DNA of 43,825 nucleotides, taken from Vulcanimicrobiales bacterium (GTDB lineage Bacteria; Vulcanimicrobiota; Vulcanimicrobiia; Vulcanimicrobiales; Vulcanimicrobiaceae). The stretch covers positions 1 through 43,825 of the forward strand of contig JBBQQR010000020.1 of NCBI GenBank assembly GCA_038215615.1, read 5' to 3'. The translations under genes and the position numbers were made by a program. Shown piece by piece: positions 2,899 through 33,292 of this stretch (its first letter is position 1; every line of letters starts with the position of its first letter). The notes under the pieces are model-generated. The model worked only from the letters and a program-made list of their open reading frames with translations, made no database searches and had not been told where the DNA came from.

Positions 2899-2957
2899 AC
2901 TTCACGTTTTCGGCTTGCTTGCAGGCATCGCCTCGAAACGCCCCGCAGAGCCCGGCT

Positions 2958-3509
2958 ATGAAGGTCGTGAAATTGGACCTTTGGATCGCACTTGCGGCGC
3001 TGATCGTAAGCGGTTTGACCGCATCGGCTGCGCTCTATCAAAGCAAAGTGTTCTCCGACCAGCTGAGCGCGACGGTTTGGCCGTACCTCTCGTTCGTCGA
3101 CGTCGCGGGGCCATCGTCGATGGATCTCAGCGTGGAAAATGACGGGGCCGGCCCGGCAATTATCGCCGGCGCCCAGGTTACCGTGGCCGGGAAAAACGAG
3201 CGCTCCGTGATCGGTGCAGTAACGGATCTCAACGTGCACCGAAAAACCGCCTCCCACTTTTCGGTTTCGGCGGGATCGATCGGCCCCGGTCAAGTGATCA
3301 GGCCCGGTGCGAGTGCCACGATCGTTAAGCTCGGGCGGCTCCCGCCCGATATCGTGGCTCAATTGCGCACGACCTATCCGAAGGTCGCGATAAGCGTCTA
3401 TTATTGTTCCCTCTTGAACCGGTGCTGGGTGGTAAGGCTACACGCAACTGAGCGCCCTCAAGAGGTCACGGGCCAAAACTACCCGCACACGACGATCCAG
3501 TCGGAGTAG
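2958..3509 (+). CDS. Hypothetical membrane-anchored protein
   Basis: ATG 2958 preferred over TTG 2919; N-terminal hydrophobic helix, then VWPYL, NDGAGPAII and YYCSLLNRCW segments. Confidence 0.7.
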   Translation: MKVVKLDLWIALAALIVSGLTASAALYQSKVFSDQLSATVWPYLSFVDVAGPSSMDLSVENDGAGPAIIAGAQVTVAGKNERSVIGAVTDLNVHRKTASHFSVSAGSIGPGQVIRPGASATIVKLGRLPPDIVAQLRTTYPKVAISVYYCSLLNRCWVVRLHATERPQEVTGQNYPHTTIQSE

Positions 3510-10191: not shown

Positions 10192-11089
10192 CCTTATCGA
10201 TCTCGACGACCTGACGGCTTCGGAGATGATCTACATCTTCGAGCGCACTGCGGACTTCGAGCAAGCAGAACCGGGTGCGCTCTTAGAGGGCATCGCATGC
10301 GTGAATATGTTTTTTGAAACCAGCACGCGAACGATGACGTCGTTCGCGCTGGCCGAGCAGCGTTTGGGCGGCAACGTGATCACGCTCTGGCCCAAAGAGT
10401 CGAGCCTGCAAAAGGGCGAGACGATCGAAGATACGGCGATGACGCTGGCGGCCATGGGCGTCAATATCTTGGTGATCCGTCATCCCGACGATGGTTATCC
10501 GCGCCGCGTCGCCTTGGCGTTCGATGGACACGTCATCAACGCGGGCGACGGCACGCACGCCCACCCGACGCAAGGCCTTCTCGACATCTACACGATCCGT
10601 CAAGAGTTCGGCGACTTGCGCGGACGGAGGATTGCGATTGTCGGTGACATCCTGCACAGCCGCGTCGCTCACTCCAACATCGCGGGCCTGCGAGCTTTCG
10701 GCGTCGAGGTGATCCTCGTCGGCCCTCCCGGTTTTCTTCCCGATGATTACATGGCGCCCCACGTCAAAGTCGTGCGCGATCTCGATTCGATCTTGCCCGA
10801 GGTTGACGCCGTCATGCTGCTGCGCATCCAGCGCGAGCGTTTTGCAGACATGCCGCTCTCCGACCAAGAGTATATTGCAGGCTATCGCTTGGATTCCAAA
10901 AGGCTCAAACGGATGCGCGAGGACGCGATCGTAATGCATCCTGGTCCGTACCATCGCGGGATGGAGCTCGACGACAGCGTGCTTGAATTTGCCGGCTGGC
11001 GTTATGCCAAACAGGTGATGCATGGCGTTCCGGTGCGCATGGCACTCCTGGATTTCCTGGTTAACGGCGCACGGGCGCTGGTGGCCTGA
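10175..11089 (+). CDS. pyrB: Aspartate carbamoyltransferase catalytic subunit
   Basis: FFETSTRT, KGETIEDT, INAGDG..HPTQ, GDILHSRV, LRIQRER, MHPGP. Confidence 0.96.
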   Translation: MRTRRSLIDLDDLTASEMIYIFERTADFEQAEPGALLEGIACVNMFFETSTRTMTSFALAEQRLGGNVITLWPKESSLQKGETIEDTAMTLAAMGVNILVIRHPDDGYPRRVALAFDGHVINAGDGTHAHPTQGLLDIYTIRQEFGDLRGRRIAIVGDILHSRVAHSNIAGLRAFGVEVILVGPPGFLPDDYMAPHVKVVRDLDSILPEVDAVMLLRIQRERFADMPLSDQEYIAGYRLDSKRLKRMREDAIVMHPGPYHRGMELDDSVLEFAGWRYAKQVMHGVPVRMALLDFLVNGARALVA

Positions 11090-11090
11090 C

Positions 11091-12311
11091 ATTCTCATCG
11101 CCGGGGGTCGGGTCGTCGATCCGGTTGCGCGGATCGATGCGGTGCTGGACGTGCGCGTACACAACGGCATTGTCACCGAAATCGGCGAGCTGTTAAAGCC
11201 GGAAGAAGGCGAGGATGTCATCGACGCCCGCAACGCGTACGTTGCGCCGGGCTTCATTGACATGCACGTGCATTTGCGCGAGCCGGGCAATCCCGAAAAA
11301 GAGACGATCGCCAGCGGATGCGCCGCCGCCGTAGCCGGCGGGTTTACGGCGTTGGCCGCCATGCCCAATACGCATCCGGCACTCGATACGCCCGAACTCG
11401 TGCGGTGGGTCAGCGAGACTGCGGGAAGCATCGGCCTGGCGCGCGTCTACCCGATCGCCGCAATAACGCACGGCCGCGAAGGAAAGGAACCGGCCGATTA
11501 CAACGCGCTCAACGCTGCCGGTGCAGTCGCTTTCAGCGATGACGGCAACACGATCGAAAGCGCCATCGCGCAAACCAGCGCGGCATTGCGCGCGCGGGAG
11601 TCCGGACGGGTTTTTATTACGCACTGTGAAGATGCGGCAGTCAAAGAGCGCGATGAATTCGATCCGGCCGCCGAAACGACGGCGGTCGAACGCGACGTCG
11701 CCATCGCGCGCGCGACATCGCTCCCATGGCATATCGCGCACGTCTCCACGCGGGGCGCGATCGAATCTATCGCCGCAGCCAAAGAACTGCGCATCGCGTG
11801 CACGGCCGAGGTGACGCCCCACCATCTGGTGTTTTCACGCGAAGACGCAGCCGGTTTGGAGATTCCATCAAAGGTTCACCCACCGCTTCGGTCGTCGCAG
11901 GACGTCGATGCGTTACGGCGCGCCGTTGTCAGCGGGACCATCGATGCGTTCGCAAGCGATCACGCGCCGCATACCGACGACGTCTCACCCGGCTTTAGCG
12001 GCTTAGAGATTGCGGCCGGCGCCTACGCTTACGCGCTCCCGGATTTGCCGGTGCGCCGCTACGTCGCAATGCTCTCCTCAACCCCCGCGCGCATCCTCGG
12101 TATTCCGGGCGGAACGCTCGCGGTAGGCTCGCCGGCCGACGTGACGATATTTGCCGACCGCGACTGGATCGTCGATCCGGCCGCATTTCATTCGAAGGGC
12201 AAGCGCACGCTCTTTGCCGGCAAGACGCTTCCGCGCCGCGCAATCGGGACGATTGTCGGCGGTGCGGTTGTGATGCAAGACGGCCGCGTCTTCGCGCGGA
12301 GCGCCCCGTGA
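11091..12311 (+). CDS. pyrC: Dihydroorotase (type I); start uncertain (ATT 11091 or ATG 11022)
   Basis: DMHVHLREPG, GGFT..AMPNT, FSDDG, HCED, HIAHVST, ASDHAPH; family-like sequence begins at ILIAGGRVVDP. Confidence 0.92.
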   Translation: MLIAGGRVVDPVARIDAVLDVRVHNGIVTEIGELLKPEEGEDVIDARNAYVAPGFIDMHVHLREPGNPEKETIASGCAAAVAGGFTALAAMPNTHPALDTPELVRWVSETAGSIGLARVYPIAAITHGREGKEPADYNALNAAGAVAFSDDGNTIESAIAQTSAALRARESGRVFITHCEDAAVKERDEFDPAAETTAVERDVAIARATSLPWHIAHVSTRGAIESIAAAKELRIACTAEVTPHHLVFSREDAAGLEIPSKVHPPLRSSQDVDALRRAVVSGTIDAFASDHAPHTDDVSPGFSGLEIAAGAYAYALPDLPVRRYVAMLSSTPARILGIPGGTLAVGSPADVTIFADRDWIVDPAAFHSKGKRTLFAGKTLPRRAIGTIVGGAVVMQDGRVFARSAP

Positions 12312-13390
12312 ATCGCGCCGCACTCTTCTTAGCGGACGGCACGCGCTTCGACGGCTCGGGGTTGGGATACGAAGGGCTAGCGTTCGGCGAGGCGGTGTTT
12401 TACACGGGCATGACGGGCTATGAAGAAGCGCTGACGGATCCGTCCTACGCCGGGCAGATATTGACGTTCACGTTCCCTATGATCGGCAACTACGGTATCT
12501 CCGGCGCCGCCGCGCAGTATTCCCGCGCATGCGTAGCGGGTGCCGTCATGAAGCGCATAGCGCGACATCCATCGCACCACGCTTCGAAGATCGATTTGCC
12601 GGCGTGGCTGGACGAACAGCGGATTCCCACGCTGGTCGATGCCGATACGCGCGCGATTACTATCACTCTGCGCGAACACGGCACGATTTGGGCTGCCCTC
12701 GCGGTCGGCGAACCGTCGCTGGAGCGAGCGGAGAAGCAGCTGGCGCAGTTCGTGCGCGGCGCAAATACCAAAGAGCTCGTGCCGAGCGTTGCTACGCGCG
12801 AGGAACGCATCGAAGGTGTGGTGGGTGGTCCGCGCGTGGTGCTGATCGACTGCGGCGTCAAGCGCGCTATCGTCCGGGAGCTCGGATCTCTCGGCGCTTC
12901 CATCACCGTCGTTCCTTATAATGCGACGCAAGAGCAGATACTGGGGCACGACCCGCAAGCGATTTTCATCTCGCCGGGGCCTGGCGATCCGACCGACTTG
13001 CCGGAGACGATCGAAACGCTGCGCGCACTGCTGGGAAAGCGCCCCATGTACGGGATCTGCCTGGGCCACCAACTCCTGGCCCTTGCTTGTGGGGCCAAGA
13101 CCTTCAAATTGCCGTACGGGCATCGCGGCGGCAATCAGCCGGTAAAGAATCTGCAACGTGGAGACGTTATCGTTACCGCGCACAATCATGGATACGCCGT
13201 CGACGCCGAGTCGCTCCCCAGCGCGCTCGAACAAACCATGGTCAATCTCAACGACGGCACCAACGAAGGCTTCCGGCACCGCGACTTCGTCGTGGAAGCC
13301 GTTCAATTTCACCCCGAAGCCTCTCCGGGGCCGTTCGACGCGCGAGGTCTTTTCGCGCATTGGCTCCAGGATCTGGTGCGACGCCCATAA
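12308..13390 (+). CDS. carA: Carbamoyl-phosphate synthase small subunit
   Basis: GEAVFYTGMTGYEE.LTDPSY, SPGPGDP, GICLGHQ (catalytic Cys), QFHPEASPGP. Confidence 0.97.
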   Translation: MNRAALFLADGTRFDGSGLGYEGLAFGEAVFYTGMTGYEEALTDPSYAGQILTFTFPMIGNYGISGAAAQYSRACVAGAVMKRIARHPSHHASKIDLPAWLDEQRIPTLVDADTRAITITLREHGTIWAALAVGEPSLERAEKQLAQFVRGANTKELVPSVATREERIEGVVGGPRVVLIDCGVKRAIVRELGSLGASITVVPYNATQEQILGHDPQAIFISPGPGDPTDLPETIETLRALLGKRPMYGICLGHQLLALACGAKTFKLPYGHRGGNQPVKNLQRGDVIVTAHNHGYAVDAESLPSALEQTMVNLNDGTNEGFRHRDFVVEAVQFHPEASPGPFDARGLFAHWLQDLVRRP

Positions 13391-13400
13391 TCTAAGCGTC

Positions 13401-14525
13401 TTGTTGATCTGCGCGGCGCTCATCGGGCGTCGCATTTTTCTCCTCACCGCTGCGATTGCCGCAGCCGCGCGCTTTCTGCAGCGTAACGATACGCAAGGCG
13501 AACGGTTCGTACCGGATGCGATCAGTGCGCCGGCACCCGCCGTCATAAGCTCGCCGGAGGTGGACTTCCAGCCGCCACGCGGCGCTGAGCTCCCCGCCGT
13601 TCCCGATGTGTCAGGCGTGCGCGCAACGCTCGAGCGCGCGGTGGTCGGGCAGGCTGGCGCGATCGAAGCTCTCATGATCGGCCTGATCGGGGGCGGTCAC
13701 CTGTTATTGGAAGGAGCTCCCGGCCTCGGAAAAACGCTGGCGTGCAGCACGATGGCGCGCGCGGTCGATGCGACCTTTTCGCGCATTCAGTGCAACGCCG
13801 ATCTAACTCCCGCCGACGTGATAGGCTGCGAAATATTCGATCAGCGCGACCTGTCGTTTAAACTTCGTTTGGGTCCGGTTTTCGCCAACGTCGTCTTGGT
13901 CGACGAGATCAACCGTGCGCCGGCGCGCGTCCAAGCGGCGTTGCTTCAGGCAATGGAAGAACAAAGTATAACCATCGCGACGGAAACCCGTGCGCTGCCG
14001 GATCCGTTCTTCGTGCTCGCGACCATGAATGAAGCCGAGGCGGACGGAATTTTTCCGCTTCCCGCGGCGCAACTGGATCGCTTTCTCCTGAAGGTCGTCC
14101 TCGAGTTTCCGACTGCGCAAGAAGATATGGCAATACTCGAGCGCCACGCAGCACGATCTGGCATTTCACTGATGGCGCCGGTCTCACTCGACGAGATCCG
14201 CACTTGGCAGGCGGCCGCGCGCGCGATCTATTGCGCGCCGGATTTGAAGCGATACGTCGCAGAGATCGTCCGCGCTACGCGCGCCGCCGCGGAATGCGGC
14301 GACTTGGAATCGGGCGCCGGGCCACGCGCGGGCCTCGCCATTCTTTGCGCCGCGCGAGCTCGTGCAATTCTGATGACACGAAACCACATAGTACCGGATG
14401 ATGTGCAGCGTGTGGCGGTCGCTGCGCTGCGCCATCGGGTCACCTTCGCCCATTCCTATCTGCTTTCGCGCGCCGACCGCGAGGGTAAGCTGCGCGCGAT
14501 CCTCGACCGCGTCGCGCCGCCGTGA
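13401..14525 (+). CDS. MoxR-family AAA+ ATPase (start uncertain: TTG 13401 or a later GTG)
   Basis: HLLLEGAPGLGKT, RIQCNADLTPADVIG, GPVFANVVLVDEINRAP..QAALLQAMEE, LPAAQLDRF, GPRA. Confidence 0.9.
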   Translation: MLICAALIGRRIFLLTAAIAAAARFLQRNDTQGERFVPDAISAPAPAVISSPEVDFQPPRGAELPAVPDVSGVRATLERAVVGQAGAIEALMIGLIGGGHLLLEGAPGLGKTLACSTMARAVDATFSRIQCNADLTPADVIGCEIFDQRDLSFKLRLGPVFANVVLVDEINRAPARVQAALLQAMEEQSITIATETRALPDPFFVLATMNEAEADGIFPLPAAQLDRFLLKVVLEFPTAQEDMAILERHAARSGISLMAPVSLDEIRTWQAAARAIYCAPDLKRYVAEIVRATRAAAECGDLESGAGPRAGLAILCAARARAILMTRNHIVPDDVQRVAVAALRHRVTFAHSYLLSRADREGKLRAILDRVAPP

Positions 14526-16116: not shown

Positions 16117-16755
16117 ATGAGCCGCTGGGATATTTCCACAACGCGCCATACCTATGCGCAGGCCGCCGAGCTGGACATGCGCGCGGAACCGCTCGCGCAC
16201 TTGAAAGCTTGGATTGAAGCGGCGCACTCGGCGGGAGCTCGCGAAGCAAACGCCATGGCCCTCAGTACTGTCGGAGAAAACAGCCGCCCGGCTGCGCGCA
16301 TGGTGCTGCTGCGCGGACTCGATGAGCGCGGTTTGGTATTCTTTACGAGCTATTTTAGCCGGAAGGGCCGCGACCTCACGCGCAAGCCATTTGCCGCGGC
16401 GCTCTTTTTTTGGCCCGAGATCCACCGCCAAGTATCCATTGAAGGCGGGGTAGAGCAACTGCCCGATGTTGAATCCGATGCATATTTTGCCGGCCGTCCA
16501 CGCGGTCATCAACTCAGCGCGTGGGCGTCTGAGCAAAGTGAGGAAGTGGAAAGCCGCGAGGTGCTTGAGCAGCGGCTCGAGGATTTCACTAAACGCTTCG
16601 AAGCCGCCATGGTCCCCCGCCCGCACTCATGGGGTGGATTTCTACTGCGCCCTGAACGCTTCGAGTTTTGGCAAGGCCGCTCGAACCGCTTGCACGACCG
16701 GATAGAATTGCGCCGTGACGGGGCCCGATGGATGCAAAGACGGCTGCAGCCGTGA
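16117..16755 (+). CDS. pdxH: Pyridoxamine 5'-phosphate oxidase
   Basis: EANAMALST, ARMVLL, SRKG, YF..RPRG.Q..AWAS.QS, WGG, EFWQGR.NRLHDR, RLQP. Confidence 0.96.
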   Translation: MSRWDISTTRHTYAQAAELDMRAEPLAHLKAWIEAAHSAGAREANAMALSTVGENSRPAARMVLLRGLDERGLVFFTSYFSRKGRDLTRKPFAAALFFWPEIHRQVSIEGGVEQLPDVESDAYFAGRPRGHQLSAWASEQSEEVESREVLEQRLEDFTKRFEAAMVPRPHSWGGFLLRPERFEFWQGRSNRLHDRIELRRDGARWMQRRLQP

Positions 16756-19700: not shown

Positions 19701-19850
19701 AAAATCCGGCGCGCTGCGGTTGAGGCGAATATCGCCTGCTTGACGAGTCTCGATACAGCGCGCGCGCTCGCCGCCGCGCTGGAGAGCAGCGCCGGGCCGC
19801 CGCGTTCGCTTCAAGAATACCGGCGCTCGCACGTACGGATAGCATCCTGA
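16752..19850 (+). CDS. carB: Carbamoyl-phosphate synthase large subunit
   Basis: GSGPIVIGQAAEFDY, two ATP-grasp halves, GSGPIRIGQGIEFDY, C-terminal MGS-like domain; GTG 16752 overlaps the pdxH stop (GTGA). Confidence 0.97.
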   Translation: MNPSVVRSVMVIGSGPIVIGQAAEFDYAGVQACRALREEGHRVILVNSNPATIMTDTEVADAVYLEPLTVASIEAIVERERPDALLPTLGGQTGLNLAVELHEAGVLERYSVELLGTPIETIRSAEDRELFKAKMIEIGEPVPESTVVTNVEHGVAFAQEFGYPVVVRPAYTLGGTGGGVVHDETELREILGGGLEASLIHQALVETSLLGWKEIEYEILRDCADNCIVVCNMENFDPVGVHTGDSIVVAPSLTLSDLEYQMLRSASLNVIRALKVQGGCNIQFALHASSSEYRIIEVNPRVSRSSALASKATGYPIAKISTRIALGQTLDEISNPVTGVTKAAYEPTLDYVVVKIPRWPFDKFPLADTALGTQMKSTGEAMGIGRTFGDALLKALRGLDLKRETLTGTALAQWSDAELEAVVIKANHERLFAVAEMLRRGAEPAHIQALSGIDPFFLYEIAELVALESRGALPAEGAYAFRMVDTAAAEFPAKSPYYYISRGEQNEMRSPGRDAVVVVGSGPIRIGQGIEFDYSCVHAAWALNAAGCASVIVNNNPETVSTDFDVSDVLVFEPPGAGEVEAVYRATGARGVMLSFGGQTAINLAGELARRGVPLVGSARESLDMAEDRAKFDAALNRIGVARPEGKAARSFRQARAIARELGFPVLVRPSYVLGGRGMEVVYNEGQLASYVESAPLIAPDAPLLVDKYLRGLELEVDAVFDGNDVLVPGIFEHIERAGIHSGDSIGVYPPLSIDAVMEKRIVEVTTAIARELQIRGLINIQFVIHEGELYIIEANPRASRTVPIIQKATGINIVAAATRIALGEKLRDMEYGVGLAPSAPFSVVKIPVFSFAKMRGVETILGPEMKSTGEVLGIDETFPAALRKGFLAAGVKLPGTGGRILVSIADGEKEDAIPVLRRYAALGHRLVATPGTREHLETAGIPCEEVNKIADGSPHVLDLIRQRAVDLVINDAQGAREISDGYKIRRAAVEANIACLTSLDTARALAAALESSAGPPRSLQEYRRSHVRIAS

Positions 19851-21241
19851 GACGCTCCGTCTCCGTCAAACTTGGCGCCCTGTTCGCTCTCCTGTTCGGC
19901 GTATTGGCCGCGCGTCAGGCGTACGTGCAAGTCATCGATGGGCCGCGCCTTGCCGCGATTTCTTACAACCCGCGACACGCACTGCTCGCGACACGCCGCG
20001 GACGCATTCTTGCAAGCGACGGTACCGTGCTCGCGCAAACGGCTAAAGGCGAACGGCAGTATCCTTACGGTCCGTCGCTTGCGCAAACCGTCGGTTACGT
20101 TTCAATACGCTATGGAACCAGTGGTCTGGAAGACGCTTACGACGCCGCGCTCACGCCGGCCGATACAACCGGCGACGCCGGGGCGCAAGCCGCGGAAATT
20201 GTTGAAGCAATCACCGGGCAAAGCGCGACGGCACGCGGCGCCGATGTTGTCACCACGATCGTTCCGGCAATTCAGAACGCTTTGTACTCCAGGCTCGCAC
20301 TCCATTCGCGTGCCGGCGGCGTCGTGCTCGATCCGCGGACGGGCGCGGTTCTGGCGCTCGGGAGCGTACCGAGCTTCGATCCGAACGCGCTCGCCGCGGA
20401 GTTCCAATCGCTGCTGCACGATCCGAATAGCCCGCTGCTCAACCGCGCTATCGACGGACTCTATCCCCCGGGCTCAACGTTTAAAATCTTCACGGCGTCG
20501 GCAGCGCTCGACGCGGGGGCTGTCACGATGCAGTCGACGTTTAACGATCCAGGCTATTTTACGATCGGAAATTTCACGCTGCACGATAACGAGTTCGAAG
20601 CGACGGGAACGCAGGACCTTACGGGAGCGTTCTCGCTCTCCAGCAACGTTGATTTCGGACAGATCGCTTTGAAGATGGGGACGCAGACGTTCTATCAGTA
20701 CATCGATCGCTGGGGAATAGGAAAATCGCTTGATTTTCAGCTTCCCGCCAGTACGGATCGCGTTCCGTCGCAGGATTCGATCGTTCCCGGCGAGCTGGCG
20801 CAAATGGGTTTCGGGCAAGGCGCCTTGCTGATGACGCCGCTGCGGATGGCGCTCCTCGCGGCGACCGTCGCCAACGGAGGCTCGGAGCCGCGTCCGTTTC
20901 TCGTTCGGCAAGTGGTCCGGCAAGGCGCTGCAAGCGGAAGCTACGGCGCCTCCGAGTTGGCCAACCCGATATCGGCGGATACGGCAGCGAGCGTGAAGAA
21001 CATGATGATTGCCGTCGTGCAGCACGGAACCGGAACGCCGGCGCAGCTGCCCGGCGTCACCGTTGCTGGTAAAACCGGAACGGCAACCAACCCGTTCGGC
21101 GCGGCGCACTCGTGGTTTGTCTGCTTTGCACCCGCGGAAAATCCACGCGTAGTCGTTGCCATCGTCGTTGAGAATGCCGGATACGGCGCGGAAGTTGCTG
21201 CGCCGATTGCGAGGGAAGTGTTGCGGGCTGCTCTGAAATGA
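19847..21241 (+). CDS. pbpA: Class B penicillin-binding protein (PbpA-like); proposed CTG start at 19847, first canonical start TTG 19904
   Basis: RRGRILASDG, YPPGSTFK (SxxK), SSN, KTGT, HSWF. The TM anchor MRRSVSVKLGALFALLFGVLAARQAYVQV begins in frame upstream of the TTG. Confidence 0.88.
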   Translation: MRRSVSVKLGALFALLFGVLAARQAYVQVIDGPRLAAISYNPRHALLATRRGRILASDGTVLAQTAKGERQYPYGPSLAQTVGYVSIRYGTSGLEDAYDAALTPADTTGDAGAQAAEIVEAITGQSATARGADVVTTIVPAIQNALYSRLALHSRAGGVVLDPRTGAVLALGSVPSFDPNALAAEFQSLLHDPNSPLLNRAIDGLYPPGSTFKIFTASAALDAGAVTMQSTFNDPGYFTIGNFTLHDNEFEATGTQDLTGAFSLSSNVDFGQIALKMGTQTFYQYIDRWGIGKSLDFQLPASTDRVPSQDSIVPGELAQMGFGQGALLMTPLRMALLAATVANGGSEPRPFLVRQVVRQGAASGSYGASELANPISADTAASVKNMMIAVVQHGTGTPAQLPGVTVAGKTGTATNPFGAAHSWFVCFAPAENPRVVVAIVVENAGYGAEVAAPIAREVLRAALK

Positions 21242-23307
21242 TCGACTCGGCGCACGTCTTTAATAACCGTTACCGGCTCGACAACAAGCTCGGCGAAGGC
21301 GGCATGGCGACGGTCTATTGCGGCACCGACACGCTGTTGCGCCGGCGGGTTGCGATCAAAGTGTTGCGTCACGATTACGCCTCCGATCAGGAATTCGTAC
21401 GGCGATTTTACCAGGAAGCCGAATCGGCCGCGAAACTCTCGCATCCGAATATCGTTAATACGTACGACGTCGGGCGGGAAGGCGACACGTACTACATCGT
21501 CATGGAGCTGGTCGATGGGCCGTCGCTCGCGGAGATCATTGCCGCGGACGGCAGGCTGCCCGAACCGGTCGCGCTCGATTACGCCGCGCAGGTCTGCAAC
21601 GGGTTGGCGTACGCGCACCGGCAAGGGTTGCTGCACCGGGACATCAAGCCCGCGAACATCTTGATCACCAAAGACGACGTGGTCAAACTTTCCGATTTCG
21701 GCATCGCGCGAGCCGTCTCGCAGCAGACCATGACGATGACGCGCCCGGGCATGGTCATGGGAAGCGTCTACTATCTCTCACCGGAGCAAGCACAGGGCTT
21801 GGACCTCACCGAAGCCTCGGATCTCTACAGCGTCGGCATCGTACTCTATCAAATGCTGACCGGCAAGCTGCCCTTCACGGGCGAGTCGCCGGTTACCGTA
21901 GCGCTCAAACACATCTCCGATCCGGCCCCTGCGCTCGATCCGTCCGCCGGCGTCAGTCCCGCGCTCGCGTCGATCGTCAGCAAGCTGTTGCAAAAACAGC
22001 CCGAGAACCGCTTCCGATCGGCAAGCGAGGTTGCGTCCGCGTTACGCGAAGCGCGTGAGCGGCCCAGCTTTGCAGCGTACTCTTTGGTTGACGATGCCCC
22101 GGGCTACGGAGGCGCGGCGATCGCGGTGCAGCCGCCCCCACGGAGATCGCGACTTCCGGACCGGCGAATCGACGCGGTTGAAGAAGAGGAGTCGCGCCGC
22201 GGACCATCCGCGTGGATCGTCGCGCTCCTCGCGCTCGTCCTGATCGGCGCCGCGGTCGCCGGATACATCATGTCCGCGCACCCGTTCACGCCCGTGCCTG
22301 CGGTCGCGGTGGCGAACTACGTCAATCAGCCCGACGCGCTGGCGCAAAAAACGATCGTCAACGCCGGGCTGACGTATAAAGCTACGCGCCAGACCAGCGA
22401 CACGGTCGCTCCCAATCATGTGATCCGTCAAGATCCGGCCCCGGGTTCGAAGATCGCGCGAGGCTCGGCGGTGCAACTTGTGATCAGCAGCGGACCGCCG
22501 ACTGTCGGTTTGCGCGACGTGGTTGGCTATACGCTTGACGATGCGCAAAAAGATCTGACCGGAGACAAACTCAACGTCACCGTCGTGCAGAAGTTCGATC
22601 CTACGCCCAAGGGCAGCGTGGTTGACGAACGCCCCAAGCCCGGTACCAAAATGCGGCAGAACGCCGGAGTTACACTGGTCGTCTCGCAAGGTCCCGCGCC
22701 GATAAAGATGCCGCGCCTGGCGGGCTTAACACTGGATCAGGCCCGGCAGATCGCCGCCCAGGACGGCTTTACGATCAACGTCAGCGAGCGCTCAGCCTTT
22801 CCAAATATTCCACCCAACGTGATCGAATCGCAAGACGTGCCCGCCGGAATGCAAGTGCCTTCGGACCATTCGACCACGGTGAACGTGGTCGTCAGCAGCG
22901 GCGGTGGCCTCACGAACGTCCCCAATCTGATCGGCAGCGATTTGACGAGCGCTCAGTCGCAGCTGAAAACGGCTGGGTTCACGGCTGCAATCGGCTACTT
23001 GGTCGAACCGGGTTCTCCGAATAACGGTCAAGTGATCTCGCTTGACCCGCAACCGGGAACGCCCGCGGAAAAAGGCTCGACCATTCGTATGACGCTCTCC
23101 GTTTCGGGTGAAGTGCCGGATACCAACGGCATGACGATCCAACAGGCGAAGGCGCAGCTCGCCGGCTACGGCTACACGATCGGCAACGTGACGCCGACAA
23201 CCGAGGGCGCAAGCGGACGAATCGTGCGCACCGAACCGGAGGCCGGCACGAAACTGGCGCCGGGCTCGCCGGTCAACATTTACGTCAACAACAGCAATCC
23301 GCCGTGA
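21238..23307 (+). CDS. pknB: PASTA-domain Ser/Thr protein kinase (PknB/PrkC), five PASTA repeats
   Basis: LGEGGMATVY, VAIK, HRDIKPAN, DFGIAR, YLSPEQ; TM helix; five ~65-aa PASTA-like repeats. Confidence 0.95.
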   Translation: MIDSAHVFNNRYRLDNKLGEGGMATVYCGTDTLLRRRVAIKVLRHDYASDQEFVRRFYQEAESAAKLSHPNIVNTYDVGREGDTYYIVMELVDGPSLAEIIAADGRLPEPVALDYAAQVCNGLAYAHRQGLLHRDIKPANILITKDDVVKLSDFGIARAVSQQTMTMTRPGMVMGSVYYLSPEQAQGLDLTEASDLYSVGIVLYQMLTGKLPFTGESPVTVALKHISDPAPALDPSAGVSPALASIVSKLLQKQPENRFRSASEVASALREARERPSFAAYSLVDDAPGYGGAAIAVQPPPRRSRLPDRRIDAVEEEESRRGPSAWIVALLALVLIGAAVAGYIMSAHPFTPVPAVAVANYVNQPDALAQKTIVNAGLTYKATRQTSDTVAPNHVIRQDPAPGSKIARGSAVQLVISSGPPTVGLRDVVGYTLDDAQKDLTGDKLNVTVVQKFDPTPKGSVVDERPKPGTKMRQNAGVTLVVSQGPAPIKMPRLAGLTLDQARQIAAQDGFTINVSERSAFPNIPPNVIESQDVPAGMQVPSDHSTTVNVVVSSGGGLTNVPNLIGSDLTSAQSQLKTAGFTAAIGYLVEPGSPNNGQVISLDPQPGTPAEKGSTIRMTLSVSGEVPDTNGMTIQQAKAQLAGYGYTIGNVTPTTEGASGRIVRTEPEAGTKLAPGSPVNIYVNNSNPP

Positions 23308-23822
23308 CCGAAAGGATTCTCGGGATCGATCCGGGCCTGCGCGTGACGGGCTACGGCGTCATCGAATATTCCGGCGGCAAGACACGCGTTGTGGAAGCGG
23401 GCGTGGTTTCTCCCCGCGCCTCCTCTGCGCTGGAAGCGCGCTTGCACGAGCTGCACGCCGGAATCGAGAGAGTTGTCGCACTGACCCACCCGGATGTCAT
23501 TGTGATCGAAGAACTCTACACGACCTATCGCAATCCGATGACCGCGATCATGATGGGTCACGCGCGTGGGGTGTTATGCCTGGCGGGCGCTCAAGCCGGC
23601 ATTCCCGTTGCAACACTGGCGCATTCGCGCGTGAAGCGCGCGCTGGCCGGTTCCGGTGCGGCGCGCAAGGAGCAGGTCAACCGGATGGTCGCGCAACTCC
23701 TGGGCTTTAAGGCGCCGCTAGCGCCGGACGACGTGTCGGACGCGCTCGCGCTGGCGCTGGCTTACTGCAACGTTCGCGAACACGACCGTCGCCTACCCGA
23801 GCAGCTGCGGCATGTTCTCTAG
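23304..23822 (+). CDS. ruvC: Holliday junction resolvase RuvC
   Basis: RILGIDPG...TGYGVI, IEE, GHARGV, G.A.KEQV..MV, DD.SDALALAL. Confidence 0.96.
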   Translation: MTERILGIDPGLRVTGYGVIEYSGGKTRVVEAGVVSPRASSALEARLHELHAGIERVVALTHPDVIVIEELYTTYRNPMTAIMMGHARGVLCLAGAQAGIPVATLAHSRVKRALAGSGAARKEQVNRMVAQLLGFKAPLAPDDVSDALALALAYCNVREHDRRLPEQLRHVL

Positions 23823-24432
23823 AATTACCGGAACGCTCGTCGACCGGACCCAGGGAAACGTCGTGCTGGACGTAGGGGGCTTGTCCTATGATATCATCCT
23901 GCCGCCGTGCGTCGAAGAAAAAGTCGCGATCGAAAACGGCGGGCAGCTCTCGCTGGAGATCTATTCGGTGATGAATATGGAGGGCAATACCGGCCACTTC
24001 ACGTTCTACGGCTTCAGCAACGCCATCGAACGCGAGTTCTTCGAAAAGCTGCTGAGCGTCGCCAGCATAGGGCCGAGATCCGCGGCCCGGGCGTTCTCGC
24101 AACCGATGTCCCGCATCGCAGGCGCGATAGATCGGGGCGATCATGCGTTTCTTAAGTCGCTGCCCGGAATCGGGCAGCAGAAGGCGCGCGACATCGTCGC
24201 GAAGTTGCAAGGGAAGGTGACGAAGTTTCTGCTCATTCGCGATGCCGAACCGGCGCCGCCGGCGCGCATTCCGGATTTTGCGGAAGAAGCGCTCGCGGTG
24301 CTGCTGCAGCTGGAGTACCGCCGCGCCGAGGCCGAAGAGATGATCCGCTCGACCCTCGACGCCGCGCCCGGCATCAACGACTCCGAAACGTTGCTGGCCG
24401 AGATCTATCGGCAGCGTGCCGCCCATGAGTGA
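23812..24432 (+). CDS. ruvA: Holliday junction branch migration protein RuvA
   Basis: OB-fold start, FYGF...ERE.F..LLSV.SIGPRSA, LPGIG.QKA HhH motifs, C-terminal domain. Confidence 0.95.
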   Translation: MFSRITGTLVDRTQGNVVLDVGGLSYDIILPPCVEEKVAIENGGQLSLEIYSVMNMEGNTGHFTFYGFSNAIEREFFEKLLSVASIGPRSAARAFSQPMSRIAGAIDRGDHAFLKSLPGIGQQKARDIVAKLQGKVTKFLLIRDAEPAPPARIPDFAEEALAVLLQLEYRRAEAEEMIRSTLDAAPGINDSETLLAEIYRQRAAHE

Positions 24433-25498
24433 CGACGCGCTCAAGCGTTTGTACGGACCGCCGGGCGAAACCGATCCCGAACGCGTCGTCGACGCCGTCG
24501 ATTCGCTCGAGGATGAAGTCTACGGCGCCAGTTTACGTCCGCGCTCATTTGACGAATACGTGGGCCAGACGACGGTCGTGGAAAACCTCAAAATTGCGAT
24601 CGCAGCTGCCAAACAGCGCAACGAACCGTTGGAACACGTACTGTTTTACGGTCCACCGGGGCTCGGCAAAACGACGCTGGCCGCGCTGATCGCCAAAGAA
24701 CTCGGCAGCGCGCTCCGGCCGACGAGTGGTCCGACGTTAGAAAAGCCCAAGGATCTCGTCGGTATCCTCACTTCGCTCGAAGACGGCGACATTTTTTTCA
24801 TTGACGAAATCCACCGGCTCGGACGGGTCGTCGAAGAGTTTCTCTATCCCGCGATGGAGGAGTATCAAATCGACTTCGTCGTCGATCGCGGCGCGTACGC
24901 CAAGACGCTGAAGCTCCCGCTCAAACGCTTTACGCTAGTCGGCGCGACGACGCGCGCGGGGATGCTTTCCGCTCCGCTTCGCGAGCGGTTCGGCATCATG
25001 CATCATCTCGATTACTATGACGAAAGCGAACTCAAGCGCATCGTGCTGCGCTCCGCGGGTGTGCTCGGCGTGCCGATAGACGAAGACGCTGCGGCCACGA
25101 TCGCCCGGCGCAGCCGCGGCACTCCGCGCATCGCGAACCGTCTGCTGCGGCGCGTGCGGGACTTTGCCGAAGTCCGCGCCGACGGGCGCGTCACCAAACC
25201 GGTAGCGGAAGAAGCGCTCGCGCGCGAAGGCGTCGACGAGCTCGGACTGGATCGCCTCGATCGTGCGTTTCTGAAAACAATTATCGAACAGTACCGCGGC
25301 GGGCCGGTCGGTATTGCGGCAATTGCGGCAACGCTCACCGAAGACGCCGAAACGCTCGAGGACGTCGTCGAGCCCTACCTCTTGAAGGCGGGCTTTGTCA
25401 CGCGCACGGCCGCGGGACGCAAAGCGACGCCGGATGCCTACTCTCATTTGGGCGTGACCGGAGGCGCGGAGCGCGCCCAACAGGAGCGTCTGCTCTGA
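24425..25498 (+). CDS. ruvB: Holliday junction branch migration ATPase RuvB
   Basis: SLRP..FDEYVGQ, GPPGLGKTTLA, FIDEIHR, GATTRAG, RGTPRIANRLLRRVRD. Confidence 0.98.
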   Translation: MSDDALKRLYGPPGETDPERVVDAVDSLEDEVYGASLRPRSFDEYVGQTTVVENLKIAIAAAKQRNEPLEHVLFYGPPGLGKTTLAALIAKELGSALRPTSGPTLEKPKDLVGILTSLEDGDIFFIDEIHRLGRVVEEFLYPAMEEYQIDFVVDRGAYAKTLKLPLKRFTLVGATTRAGMLSAPLRERFGIMHHLDYYDESELKRIVLRSAGVLGVPIDEDAAATIARRSRGTPRIANRLLRRVRDFAEVRADGRVTKPVAEEALAREGVDELGLDRLDRAFLKTIIEQYRGGPVGIAAIAATLTEDAETLEDVVEPYLLKAGFVTRTAAGRKATPDAYSHLGVTGGAERAQQERLL

Positions 25499-26493
25499 AA
25501 CGCTCGGCGTTTCTTGCCGCAGCGGCGGCACTCACCGGCAGTTGCAGTTTAGAGGCCCGAGCGATCGCACAAGAGGATCCCGCGGTATCTTCGCAGGTTC
25601 CCGCGCTGCGCGTGTTGCTTGGCCAAGGACACGTCCAACCGATCGACGGGCAAACGTTTCTGTACGAAGGACGGCGTTATCGCGGGACGGCGGCAATCTT
25701 GCCCGACACGGGTCAGGTCGTCAGCACTGTACCTATCGAACAATACTTGTACAGCGTCGTTTCGCGCGAGATGCCGCGCAGCTGGCCGCCCGGCTCACTG
25801 CAAGCTCAGGCGATACTCGCGCGCACGTATGTGCTGCAGCGCAGCAATCCCAATCGCGGGTACGATCTGGTTCCCTCCGAGACCGATCAAGTGTACAGCG
25901 GCGTCGACGCCGAGGCAGCGCAAACAAGCGCCGCCGTTGATGCAACCGCCGGCCAAGCGCTGCGGTTCGGCGCGGGTTTCGCTTCGATTGCCTACTCCGC
26001 GTGCTGCGGCGGTCACACCGAATCTTCCGCGGACGCGTGGGGCGGAAGGCCTTTGCCGTATCTCTCCGGCGTCGCATGCGATTACTGCAAAGACTCGTCT
26101 TGGTACCATTGGACGCAAACCGTCAGTGCCGACGCGCTTCTGGGCGCGCTCGGAAATCAGTCGGCCGCAATCGGCGATCTCCAAAACATCTCCCTGGACT
26201 CTCCAGACGCCAGTGGCCGCTCGCGATTCTGGACCTTTACCGGAAGCGCGGGTTCCACGCGTTTGAAAGCCGCCGACGTTCGGCGCGCCATCGGCTCACG
26301 CGTCATTCCAAGCTTGCTGATACGCAAAACCGCTTTCGACCCCGCGTCCCAAACCTCAACGATCGAAGGCGCCGGATTGGGCCACGGCGTCGGGTTCTGT
26401 CAGTGGGGCGCGCGCGGACTTGCAAAGACCGGCGCGGACGCCGCCGCGATTCTCGCGTTCTACTTCCCGGGCACGAGCATCGGCACTGTCTGA
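25495..26493 (+). CDS. SpoIID/LytB-domain lytic transglycosylase; proposed CTG start at 25495, first canonical start GTG 25612
   Basis: YRG, EQYL.SVV.REMP..WP...LQAQAILARTY, DQVY.G, CCGGHTE, GHGVGFCQWGA, IL.FYFPG; an in-frame signal peptide lies upstream of the GTG. Confidence 0.88.
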   Translation: MKRSAFLAAAAALTGSCSLEARAIAQEDPAVSSQVPALRVLLGQGHVQPIDGQTFLYEGRRYRGTAAILPDTGQVVSTVPIEQYLYSVVSREMPRSWPPGSLQAQAILARTYVLQRSNPNRGYDLVPSETDQVYSGVDAEAAQTSAAVDATAGQALRFGAGFASIAYSACCGGHTESSADAWGGRPLPYLSGVACDYCKDSSWYHWTQTVSADALLGALGNQSAAIGDLQNISLDSPDASGRSRFWTFTGSAGSTRLKAADVRRAIGSRVIPSLLIRKTAFDPASQTSTIEGAGLGHGVGFCQWGARGLAKTGADAAAILAFYFPGTSIGTV

Positions 26494-27568
26494 ACTCGCC
26501 TCCGCGTACGATTACGATCTGCCGAAAGATCTGATCGCGCAGCGCCCAGCGGAGCCGCGCGATTCCTCGCGGCTGCTGGCCGTGCGCGGCGATACGTTAG
26601 CACATTTACGGTTCACCGATTTTCCGTCGCGGCTGCGCGGCGGAGACTTGCTCGTCCTCAACGAGACGCGCGTCATTCCGGCGCGCGTGCACGGGCGGCG
26701 TACACCGAGCGGCGGCGAGGTCGAACTGCTCTTTTTGCGGCCGGCGCAAGAGGCGCATTACGATCCGCGATCGTCGCGTTGGCTAGTGCTTGCCAAGCCG
26801 GGCCGGCGATTGCGCGCCGGTGAGCGCATTGCGTTCGGTGAATTCGGCGAGGCGGTCGTGGCCGGCGTTCGCGCGGATGGCGTCCGGGTAGTCGAATTGC
26901 GGCTCAACGTTGAGTTCGAGGAGTTCCTCGACCGCGCCGGTGAGTTGCCGTTGCCGCCCTACGTTACCGAAGATTCGCAACAGGCGCGCAGCGGATACCA
27001 GACGATCTTTGCGCGCGATCCGGGCAGCGTGGCTGCCCCGACCGCATCGCTGCATTTTACGCAAGCGGTTTTCGACGATCTTCAGCAGCGGCACATCGAG
27101 GTTGCGAAGCTGTCGTTAGACGTCGGGCTCGGTACGTTCCGGCCGCTCCAAAGCGAGCGAATCGAAGAACACACGATGCATGCCGAGTACTTTTCGATTC
27201 CGCAAGAGACCGCGCACGCGGTGAGGCGCGCCAAAGAAGAAGGCCGTCGCATTGTGGCGGCCGGGACGACGGTCGTGCGCGCATTGGAAGCTTCGGCGCG
27301 CGGTCGGGGCGAGGTACAGCCCGGCGCCGGCGAAACCGATCTTTTCATCAAGCCCGGCTTCCGATTCCAAATCGTCGATGCGCTGCTCACGAATTTCCAC
27401 TTGCCGCGCTCGACGCTGCTGGTGCTCGTTTGTGCGTTTGCGGGGCGGAACCGGATCTTCCGTGCGTACCGCGAAGCCGTCGAAAACCGTTACCGCTTTT
27501 TTTCTTTCGGCGACGCGATGTTTATCGAATCGCGCGGTTCCGCAGCCAGCGACGCGGCTTCACTATAA
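26486..27568 (+). CDS. queA: S-adenosylmethionine:tRNA ribosyltransferase-isomerase; proposed CTG start at 26486 (alternative TTG 26420)
   Basis: YDYDLP..LIAQ.P..PRD.SRLL, N.TRVIPAR, PLPPY, YQT, GSVAAPTA.LHF, GTT.VRALE, TNFHLP, YRFFSFGDAM. Confidence 0.95.
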   Translation: MSELASAYDYDLPKDLIAQRPAEPRDSSRLLAVRGDTLAHLRFTDFPSRLRGGDLLVLNETRVIPARVHGRRTPSGGEVELLFLRPAQEAHYDPRSSRWLVLAKPGRRLRAGERIAFGEFGEAVVAGVRADGVRVVELRLNVEFEEFLDRAGELPLPPYVTEDSQQARSGYQTIFARDPGSVAAPTASLHFTQAVFDDLQQRHIEVAKLSLDVGLGTFRPLQSERIEEHTMHAEYFSIPQETAHAVRRAKEEGRRIVAAGTTVVRALEASARGRGEVQPGAGETDLFIKPGFRFQIVDALLTNFHLPRSTLLVLVCAFAGRNRIFRAYREAVENRYRFFSFGDAMFIESRGSAASDAASL

Positions 27569-28995
27569 AAGACGAGACCCGGCGCGGCGCCGGGGCGTTT
27601 GCGCACGTGCTTACGCTGCGTATAATCCACGACGACCCTTAGGCTACTGCGGCCCTTCGAATGCAGTGCGGCCAGTTCGGCAGCGATGCGAATGTCCTCG
27701 TCGCAAGGAGCGGCGCGATCGTCTCGCTGCAAAATGACGTGAGCGCCCGGCTGCCCGCGCGCGTGAAACCAGAGATCGTTGGGCCGCGCGGTTCGAAATG
27801 TCAGTTCGGCATTTTCAGCTGGAGATCGTCCAACGTACACGCGCGTTCCCGCGGGAGTCACGCCTTGCATCGGTGCGCGTTTCCGCGGCCGGCTCTTCGG
27901 CGCAGCGGCAGCGCCACGCGGCTTAACGAGTTCGAGTATTTCGCGCACCTGGTCGTGATCCGCGCGTTCGAGTTCCCAGCGCAACTCTTCGACTTCCTCT
28001 AAGCTTCCCCGCACCGCGTTGCGCCTGCGCGCGAGATGAGCGGCTGCGCTTCCGGCTTTTTTGTATCGCGCGAATACTGCGGCGGCCTCATCCTTCGCGG
28101 CTTGGCGATCGGCCGGGGCAAGCTCGTGCAATCCGCCGTAGATCGCATCGCCGCGCGCGCGCAGATCGTCGCGCGTCGCCGATACTGCCAGCGCGGCCTC
28201 CACACGCGCGAGCTCCGCGTTCAGTTTCCGTGCGCGCTCTTCGAGCATGCGCTGTGCGCCGGCGCGAACTTTGTCTTCCCCGGCTCCGGATTCCGAAGGA
28301 ACGGCCGCCGTCGTCCGCAGTTCCGAAAACAATTCTATCAGCGACGGAGTTCGCTCGCATGCCGACTCTTCGAAGCCGGTTAGCGGAACGACGTGCCCTT
28401 GCAAGAGCGCGCCGGCGTCGTCGCGGTAAACGTAGAGGTCGTTTCCGCGGACTGCTTCGGCCGACGGTTCCTCTGCGAACTGCGATCCCATTTTTCCCGC
28501 CCGCGCAGGCGGCGGTTCGTACGCGATTCCCGGACGAACCGATCGCGCGGCTTTGCCGGAACGCCGAAATTCCTTGAGCGCCGCAACGACAATCCCGCCC
28601 TTTGCGATGATGATGTTTCCGAATCGCGGCACGAGTTCGCAGATCACGTTGTACGATTCGGGAACTCCGAAGCGCGACTGCGCGGCAAATTGCAGTTCCA
28701 GAATGCGTTCGCCCTCGATCGCGCGAGATGCGGTCAGCGACTTTCCGCGCAGAGCGGCGCCAGCCGCGCGAACGAAGCCCGGCTCCGCCGCAATGGGCAG
28801 CTCGCCGTCTTCAACCGTGATGAGCGGCGTGGGTGCGAAGACGTCTGCGCACATCAGCTGCGTACGGCCCTTTTTCCACAGTGCCATCGCGAAGCGACCA
28901 TCCTCGAGCTGGCCCACATCGCGGACGCGCGCCCCTTGGAACCGGCTTTCAATCTCGAGCGCCAGGCGGGCGATCAGGATGGCGTCAGTCCGCAT
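27490..28995 (-). CDS. rqcH: NFACT-family ribosome quality-control protein (RqcH/Rqc2/FbpA-like)
   Basis: NFACT-N (ERILEL, ELVPRFGNIII), coiled coil, NFACT-R (YVGRS..EN..LTF..A.PNDLWFHA...PGAHV, VDYTQRKHV.K..GA.PG.V.Y). Confidence 0.85.
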   Translation of the reverse strand: MRTDAILIARLALEIESRFQGARVRDVGQLEDGRFAMALWKKGRTQLMCADVFAPTPLITVEDGELPIAAEPGFVRAAGAALRGKSLTASRAIEGERILELQFAAQSRFGVPESYNVICELVPRFGNIIIAKGGIVVAALKEFRRSGKAARSVRPGIAYEPPPARAGKMGSQFAEEPSAEAVRGNDLYVYRDDAGALLQGHVVPLTGFEESACERTPSLIELFSELRTTAAVPSESGAGEDKVRAGAQRMLEERARKLNAELARVEAALAVSATRDDLRARGDAIYGGLHELAPADRQAAKDEAAAVFARYKKAGSAAAHLARRRNAVRGSLEEVEELRWELERADHDQVREILELVKPRGAAAAPKSRPRKRAPMQGVTPAGTRVYVGRSPAENAELTFRTARPNDLWFHARGQPGAHVILQRDDRAAPCDEDIRIAAELAALHSKGRSSLRVVVDYTQRKHVRKRPGAAPGLVFYSEAASLAAEPRDSINIASPKEKKR

Positions 28996-31837: not shown

Positions 31838-32215
31838 ATGCCCACCAAAAAGCAGGTCGAAGAGGCGATCTTCGCGCTGGAAGGCTTCCGTGTTGAATTC
31901 GATCTTTTCGATCCTAAGCACCCGCTGCCCGAGTACGAATGGCGCGTCATGGCGCCGCAGCGCTGGAAAATTTCGGATTGGAAGAACGAGCGTCTGGGCG
32001 GCTACCGCACCTTGGCCAAAGGCTTGAGCGTCTTTCGCGGAGACGGTTCGCCGGTTCCGCGGGACATGCAGTTGGGAAATCTCCGCGACGGCTACTTCGA
32101 AGCGCAGTACGGTCAGATCGCGCATGGCGGATCGGAAAAGCCCTCCAACGTGATCCGCATGGATGGGCGCGAGGGCGGAGTCACGGGCCGCGGACGCAAA
32201 CCTCGCCGCACATGA
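31838..32215 (+). CDS. Hypothetical protein (125 aa)
   Basis: Fills the glmS-rph gap exactly (3 nt after glmS stop, ATGA overlap with rph); globular N-terminal ~90 aa and a basic tail. Confidence 0.75.
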
Positions 32216-32961: not shown

Positions 32962-33292
32962 AAGATTTCGCGCGCTCGTTGCGCGCGTTGGGGAATTCTA
33001 CGTCACGGATCGGGCGATGAAAGCTGCTCAGAAGACGATCGAGGCCGAGCTTGCCGCCGGCGGAGCGGGCGAATTCGCCCGCGGCCGCTACGTCGAGGCA
33101 GTACGGCGGTATTTCTTAGGCTTCGAGCGTGAAGCGCGTGCGCAGCTGCGCGACGTCGACAAGCGGCTCGTGCACGCGAACCAGGTGCATTTTAACCTTG
33201 CCGCCGAACGCGGCGTGGTGGTCAAACGGATCGAAGCGACGCAAGGCGTGCTGAAAGAGATTGAAGATGGCGCAGGTTCTGCGCGAGGTTGA
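32951..33292 (+). CDS. Hypothetical alpha-helical/coiled-coil protein (113 aa)
   Basis: [21 protein letters not shown]...; overlaps the rph end and the mlaE start. Confidence 0.7.

Follow-up and report, generated by a model that had tools for sequence, protein, structure and literature searches.

Weak start codons at gene junctions of a Vulcanimicrobiales genome: candidate sites of termination-coupled re-initiation

Described weak starts and the window studied here

Termination-reinitiation coupling has been described at gene overlaps of the -4, -1, and -8 types (PMC10666635, PMC12548453, PMC6728339). [quoted passage not shown] Here we analyze a stretch of 43,825 nucleotides from a Vulcanimicrobiales bacterium (contig JBBQQR010000020.1), referred to as the window, which is contig C20 of an assembly of 2.21 Mb with 61% GC (G000) and in which the genes pbpA, spoIID, queA, and pyrC appear to start on CTG or ATT beside the stop codon of the gene upstream. 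Vulcanimicrobium alpinum is a cultured member of the class concerned. The geometry is that of the known coupled pairs, but the -4 overlaps here also appear to use CTG, ATA, GTA, TTA, and CTA. We hold with moderate confidence that these four genes, and about 5% of the conserved genes of the genome, are translated by coupled re-initiation on weak codons near the upstream stop. The basis for this is the lack of canonical codons (ATG, GTG, or TTG), the position at junctions, the switching of start columns among relatives, and a rate higher than in controls.

Conserved non-canonical starts of housekeeping genes within one lineage, likewise missed by annotation, have a precedent in Deinococcus deserti, where rpsL and Deide_03051 start with CTG, dnaA with ATC, and infC with ATA (PMC2830850). 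That precedent comprises four genes, two of them with peptide evidence, and is not known to involve stop overlaps, whereas here at least 25 candidates per genome lie at junctions and are predicted from sequence. Starts repressed by initiation factor 3 (IF3) form another group, which includes infC, the GTC of Streptomyces sigR (PMC5472188), and ccpN, cvfC1, and citZ of Staphylococcus aureus (PMC13009471). They resemble the present sites in that a weak codon lowers output, and they indicate that codons with two mismatches can work in vivo. However, they are described as single regulatory genes, and the four S. aureus sites have extended SDs (PMC13009471), whereas here most SDs are modest and, at many sites, the codon changes from one relative to another. 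The Escherichia coli recJ mutant with a GUA start, suppressed by infC alleles (Haggerty and Lovett 1997, cited in PMC2268962), resembles the present case in having GUA as the start of a coupled gene, but it is a laboratory mutation that needs an IF3 suppressor, whereas GTA appears to occur naturally here in pth and mutS2 beside an ordinary-looking IF3. In E. coli reporters, CUG, AUA, AUC, and AUU give about 0.1 to 3% of the AUG level (10.1101/063800). Among open-access main texts, we found none that treats the starts of this class or describes NTA as a natural start at -4 overlaps, and the main text of bioRxiv 10.64898/2026.09.10.750558 contains neither "non-canonical" nor "CTG."

Start columns at the four window junctions

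The original prediction placed in-frame CTG codons at three stop-overlapping positions, 19847, 25495, and 26486, and all three are present there, as are the seven ATGA or GTGA junctions that it named (pdxH/carB is GTGA at 16752). The features described here lie on the forward strand. At the carB/pbpA junction, the sequence CTGA (19847 to 19850) combines the carB stop (19848 to 19850) with the likely pbpA start, CTG 19847, in a -4 overlap. From this codon, pbpA (19847 to 21241) would encode a class B penicillin-binding protein A-like protein of 464 aa with Pfam matches to Transpeptidase and PBP_dimer_2 and, by hydropathy, an N-terminal anchor at residues 5 to 21. The frame is open from 19724, and its first canonical codon is TTG 19904, a start that would remove 19 residues, including most of the hydrophobic 17-mer (Kyte-Doolittle 2.18). 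The start column is CTG in all nine genus genomes that carry pbpA, which are independent assemblies. Among 21 other loci, the column holds ATG, GTG, or TTG in 15 (two of these from unpublished genomes, G028 and G030), a canonical codon lies at most four codons away in 4, CTG is found in 1, and 1 could not be aligned; in G021, carB has GTGA at the identical overlap position. The first base of the pbpA CTG, a C, serves carB as the free third base of its last Ser codon. This C is invariant in the nine genomes, compared to 3 of 59 comparable four-fold sites (18 of 188 overall), which hints at selection on the weak codon, at one site only. The CTG is preceded by a weak SD-like GGA (19837 to 19839; GGGT, GGTGG, GGTGA, or GGAG in relatives) whose duplex of -3.3 kcal/mol is no higher than background.

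The ruvB/spoIID junction has the same form, with CTGA at 25495 to 25498 containing the ruvB stop (25496 to 25498) and the likely spoIID start, CTG 25495, in a -4 overlap; the CTG begins with the free third position of ruvB's last Leu codon. Upstream of it, 158 open codons contain no canonical codon, and the next one, GTG 25612, would cost 39 residues of the predicted 332-aa SpoIID/LytB-domain protein (25495 to 26493; PF08486, TIGR02669), which has a signal-like N terminus (KRSAFLAAAAAL). For neither pbpA nor spoIID does an ATG, GTG, or TTG precede the conserved N terminus. The spoIID column is CTG in four, GTG in five, and ATG in one of 10 genus genomes and is ATG or GTG in most remaining family loci; on a four-gene tree, the codon fits either one GTG-to-CTG change and a reversal or two gains. 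An AGGAG SD (25482 to 25486) lies inside the ruvB tail (QERLL and stop), 8 nt before the start, with a duplex of -7.7 kcal/mol with the class anti-SD.

The likely queA start, CTG 26486, lies in a -8 overlap, CTGTCTGA (26486 to 26493), with the spoIID stop (26491 to 26493). From it, queA (26486 to 27568) would encode 360 aa, of which residues 6 to 348 match positions 4 to 343 of the NF001140 model. The canonical options are TTG 26420, with an overlap of 74 nt, and GTG 26582, which is inside the QueA model. Two of 10 genus genomes share the CTG, the other being G008, which has the same CTG TCT GA and no canonical alternative. In six genus members, an ATG is located in a spacer, and in G023 and G024 the -8 overlaps GTG TCT GA and TTG ACT GA are found five codons further upstream. 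Altogether, 16 of 30 queA loci (including one from an unpublished genome, G028) lack a canonical start near the N terminus, and many of these follow a PilZ gene whose stop, in the -4 frame, covers CTA, CTG, or TTA. A stand-alone PilZ gene is found between spoIID and queA in many family members (L013:1130-1501, L016:1151-1501, and others); tblastn of it against G000 gave no match. Of the three CTG cases, queA is the weakest.

A fourth case, which the original prediction overlooked, is pyrC, with a likely start at ATT 11091, 1 nt after the pyrB stop (the stop and the ATT span 11087 to 11093). None of eight genus relatives has a canonical pyrC start upstream; the column is ATT in seven and CTG in one. 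The pyrC frame is open for only nine codons upstream in three relatives and for four codons in one, and therefore the ATG at 11022 of the window is not conserved. An ACG nine codons upstream is an alternative start. Both queA and pyrC retain canonical alternatives with long overlaps, which are not conserved in relatives.

Taken together, the ortholog columns, which switch between CTG and canonical codons, support the predicted starts. The CTGs are likely to be real starts, with ATG, GTG, or TTG at the same column in relatives for spoIID and pbpA and weaker evidence for queA, and the canonical alternatives either cut needed segments (pbpA, spoIID) or create a long overlap (queA), as had been proposed. 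The claim that CUG is tolerated routinely is not supported. The genome has four CTGA junctions without a nearby canonical start, compared to 336 canonical -4 overlaps (923 close pairs), and across six canonical window junctions ATG and GTG replace each other but CTG does not appear in 44 relative rows, a count that drops three pyrR rows not aligned to the start. Genome-wide, 196 of 214 ATGA, 127 of 162 GTGA, 42 of 70 TTGA, and 23 of 83 CTGA sites have a downstream gene whose frame is open at -4. The enrichment of CTGA overlaps that was expected from routine use was not found (23/83 versus 43/210 for CTAA plus CTAG; Fisher P = 0.21, with a control that is itself contaminated by NTA starts). The use of CTG is therefore gene specific rather than routine.

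Elsewhere in the window, the moxR frame has a hydrophobic low-complexity N-terminal stretch (13390 to 13620) ahead of its AAA domain, and the open reading frames (ORFs) at 2937 to 3509, 27661 to 28002, 31838 to 32215, and 32972 to 33292 have no Pfam match.

Missing canonical starts across the genome and the class

The idea that junction starts of this kind are lineage-wide fared better in its breadth than in its restriction to CTG: non-canonical starts appear class-wide, and the codon set extends to ATA, ATT, ATC, GTA, TTA, and possibly CTA, GTC, and ACG, at positions -4, -8, -1, -5, and -10 relative to the upstream stop and at zero gap. The candidate starts overlap the upstream stop or lie within a few bases of it. 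In G000, a canonical start near the junction is missing from 44 of 923 close pairs, and 23 of the 44 use the -4 frame (P = 0.007); this screen used our own gene finder, and such lists also catch prfB, a known frameshift gene. The mechanism of the prfB +1 frameshift is known, and its CTT-TGA site is found at G000:C1 near 158817. Twenty-eight strong cases have no upstream canonical codon at all; 24 of them are located no more than 60 nt from a stop, compared to 1,132 of 1,986 genes (P = 0.002), and the remaining four resemble doubtful gene calls. For 17 named genes, the NCBIfam model begins upstream of the first canonical codon (smc, mutS2, tmk, truB, truA, thiL, coaE, HAD, leuB, two ABC ATPases, thpR, PHP, MqnP, prfA, pth, and queA); for example, the likely start is GTA in pth and mutS2, ATA in smc, and CTG in prfA and tmk.

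Ortholog pairs were compared like for like. Of 229 pairs with outgroups, 12 were flagged in G000 alone and 2 in the partner alone, or about 9 versus 0 after curation, which discounted prs (false), infC (known), and pth (a region chosen for it) and in which both partner flags look false. The corresponding counts were 3 versus 0 for the 87 other-class pairs and, inside the class, 8 versus 5 for 191 pairs. About 5% of the conserved genes in G000 have no usable canonical start. These ortholog-paired counts replaced a first ortholog screen, which was dropped because its alignments extended into the upstream gene and it over-flagged close relatives. Junction-only screens on pieces of 120 to 400 kb were too noisy to tell groups apart.

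For pth, 25 of 30 class loci are without a canonical start, compared to 1 of 20 loci from other classes and none of six outgroup loci. In 20 of the class loci, the rplY stop is in the -4 frame, at five distances, and lies over GTA (11 loci) or ATA (9 loci) only. The canonical pth ORF encodes 166 aa and is missing the GLGNPG...TRHN segment, in line with the proposal that callers limited to ATG, GTG, and TTG would truncate such proteins. Four protein forms were also looked up as exact sequences in the protein collection, with no match. Loci without a canonical start were also more frequent in the class than in other classes for smc (3/17 versus 0/13), mutS2 (5/17 versus 0/6, leaving out seven other-class loci whose N terminus failed to align), tmk (6/17 versus 1/13), prfA (2/6 versus 0/23), and purA (7/11 versus 0/13). 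Pooled over the six genes, with the rows of genus g1 taken out by hand, the totals are 27 of 76 for the class and 2 of 88 for other classes.

The start columns of these genes switch as those of the window do. In smc, 2 of 17 class loci have ATA and 14 have GTG, ATG, or TTG, with ATAA aligned to ATG or GTG. The GTA of mutS2 (GTAG) aligns with ATG or GTG, and the CTG of tmk with GTG, TTG, or ATG; TTA or GTA stands opposite TTG in HAD, and CTA, TTA, ATA, or CTG stands opposite GTG in priA. Since the same gene has different weak codons in different lineages, repeated origins are indicated. For purA, the open frame extends just one codon ahead of ATC in 5 of 5 genus relatives, and this ATC is present in 6 of 6 assemblies; an indel was considered for this gene and rejected.

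Some further loci are of interest for their codons. A coaE gene (L397:2692-3270) likely starts at GTC, the sigR codon of Streptomyces, seven bases after GGAGG. For recF (L395:4251) and leuB (L403:2424), the likely start is an ATT that overlaps the stop at -5 (ATTAG), an arrangement that PMC10666635 describes as rare. The gene after rpsI (L386:2808-3881) has a frame that extends just two codons ahead of the overlap in 3 of 3 aligned genus relatives, which leaves ACG or CTA as its start.

Competing explanations, the ribosome, and significance

In the mechanism we propose, a ribosome finishing the upstream gene would re-initiate a few bases away on CTG, ATT, ATA, ATC, GTA, or TTA. The terminating ribosome would already be bound to the mRNA, in many cases over an SD within the tail of the upstream gene, and fMet-tRNA would need only a 2-nt shift (at -4) or another short shift; this may be why a weak codon could supply a low-demand protein. 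Output would be low and coupled to upstream translation. Silent changes in the tail of the upstream gene, or in its stop codon, would create weak-codon sites, and such changes would be tolerated gene by gene and arise repeatedly.

Several observations weigh against coupled re-initiation on weak codons. Every start is a prediction, and the exact codon is ambiguous at the -1 sequences TAATC or TAACG of tonB, ugtP, DUF92, purA, and truA. Near-cognate codons (TAATC, TAACG, ATT) also adjoin the CTA, TTA, and some GTA calls, for instance ATT two codons before priA and ACG or ATT before family queA. The non-enrichment of CTGA points the same way, as does the SD strength at 23 sites in the -4 frame, which does not clearly exceed that at lone stops (median -3.5 versus -2.7, P = 0.07), and the CTGs of prfA and tmk are in frame 0 and not in overlaps. 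Junction-only screening of 120- to 180-kb pieces gave no separation (9 of 141 flagged in the class, 7 of 114 in other classes, and 5 of 103 in outgroups), and in G003 it was not significant. CTGA starts were found in other classes as well (coaE in G106, a flippase in G102). The ortholog controls comprise few pairs (229 with outgroups and 87 with other classes), and the six pooled genes were picked because they are non-canonical in G000, from kin that are not independent and with many other-class loci richer in AT.

It is possible, though we think it doubtful, that the starts are real but reflect a general, under-annotated trait of many high-GC bacteria, so that neither the class nor its ribosome is special. 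The other-class CTGA starts, the lack of separation in the junction-only screen, and the Deinococcus case (PMC2830850) would fit such a trait; it is opposed by the paired counts (12 versus 2 and 3 versus 0) and by pth, for which the other-class loci with at least 60% GC are canonical in 4 of 5 cases. Rather improbable is a set of selected IF3-sensitive switches, like infC and Streptomyces sigR, by which pth, prfA, truA, truB, queA, lysS, smc, and mutS2 would rise when IF3 falls. An apparently intact IF3, the invariant C of pbpA, and a pth start that is non-canonical class-wide and always RTA at -4 speak for switches, but smc, mutS2, tmk, prfA, and spoIID have canonical codons in some relatives and non-canonical ones in others, which fits drift, and the gene set takes in transporters and biosynthetic enzymes. 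Slippage of the ribosome at an NTAA or NTAG stop, yielding a fusion protein without initiation, is very unlikely. The -4 frame does equal a -1 shift, and GTA, TTA, and CTA are two mismatches from ATG. However, relatives have a canonical start at the corresponding column (smc, mutS2, HAD, priA), the upstream partner varies (spoIID or a PilZ gene in the case of queA), PbpA and SpoIID require targeting segments at the N terminus, and inspection by eye, rather than a formal scan, found no conserved slippery run. Assembly errors or gene decay are largely refuted: G000 is an assembled genome, but the same codons recur in independent assemblies (pbpA, 9 of 9; purA, 6 of 6; pth; pyrC), and the frames are intact, single copy, and matched to full-length models.

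The original prediction had named relaxed discrimination by IF3 as a possible cause, which the sequence does not support, and a poorly discriminating IF3 is an unlikely explanation. The class-specific changes at columns shared by the outgroups are A21I, V54I, K72R, D103E, and K177R, all conservative, and the C-terminal extension also differs. At A42, G71, Y75, R131, and P176, which we take to be the IF3 fidelity positions, the aligned residues are those of E. coli. In 78 of 80 loci, infC still starts with ATA. A weaker IF3 would fit the class-fixed K72R and D103E and the E. coli infC mutations that raise coupled GUA initiation (cited in PMC2268962), but the class changes also occur in some other-class genomes and most junctions remain canonical.

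Other components looked ordinary. The initiator tRNA of G000 is canonical, with the anticodon and three GC pairs unchanged; the uS9 tail, RRF, RsmB, RsmD, and KsgA are present with no defect seen; and a standard 790 loop, G1338/A1339, and anti-SD occur in the 16S genes of three class relatives (L511, L512, and L513), which were used because no 16S 3' end was found in the G000 assembly. RsmB has matches in three class genomes and none in the other-class genomes G062 and G106. The uS13 protein (rpsM, G000:C6) has a long C-terminal tail ending KKPAPATGGGPPKK, and the C-terminal tail of uS13 reaches the P site. A tRNA-Sec gene is present (G000:C36:9883-9976), and ARAGORN detected no tmRNA in the assembly.

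One segment of 16S rRNA differs. In all three class 16S genes, the bridge-B3 segment of helix 44 (h44; 1415-1424/1476-1485) has C1415-G1485, Y1416-G1484, and A1418.A1482, which matches the archaeon Halorussus, and the full set is found in none of seven other bacteria compared, including one other-class genome. The same segment may also occur in Spirochaetes and Thermotogae. The E. coli h44 mutants C1484G and 1474-6 GUU raise CUG initiation about 2- and 3-fold, respectively (PMC3082907, Table 2), and the class has G1484, A1482, and C1476. However, in the class G1484 is paired to U/C1416 and C1476 to G1424, but in the E. coli mutants pairs are broken, and therefore the likeness is a lead and not an equivalence. 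As a lead only, the archaeal-type segment, rather than IF3, may be the cause of the tolerance in the class. A bolder version, which we put forward tentatively, is that the post-termination register and not the codon picks the start, such that any N-U-purine over the stop (GUA, UUA, CUA, AUA, CUG) could start essential genes (pth, smc, priA), as permitted by this h44 segment.

If coupled re-initiation on weak codons is correct, about one conserved protein in 20 would be N-terminally mis-called in a widespread and mostly uncultured class of Vulcanimicrobiota, with the loss of membrane anchors, signal peptides, P-loops, or catalytic motifs. The sites would also be natural alleles for asking how stringent the start-codon check is during re-initiation and whether IF3 or subunit joining performs it. 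The rplY-pth junction, with ATA or GTA at five distances in the same frame, and the h44 segment are directly testable in E. coli reporters.

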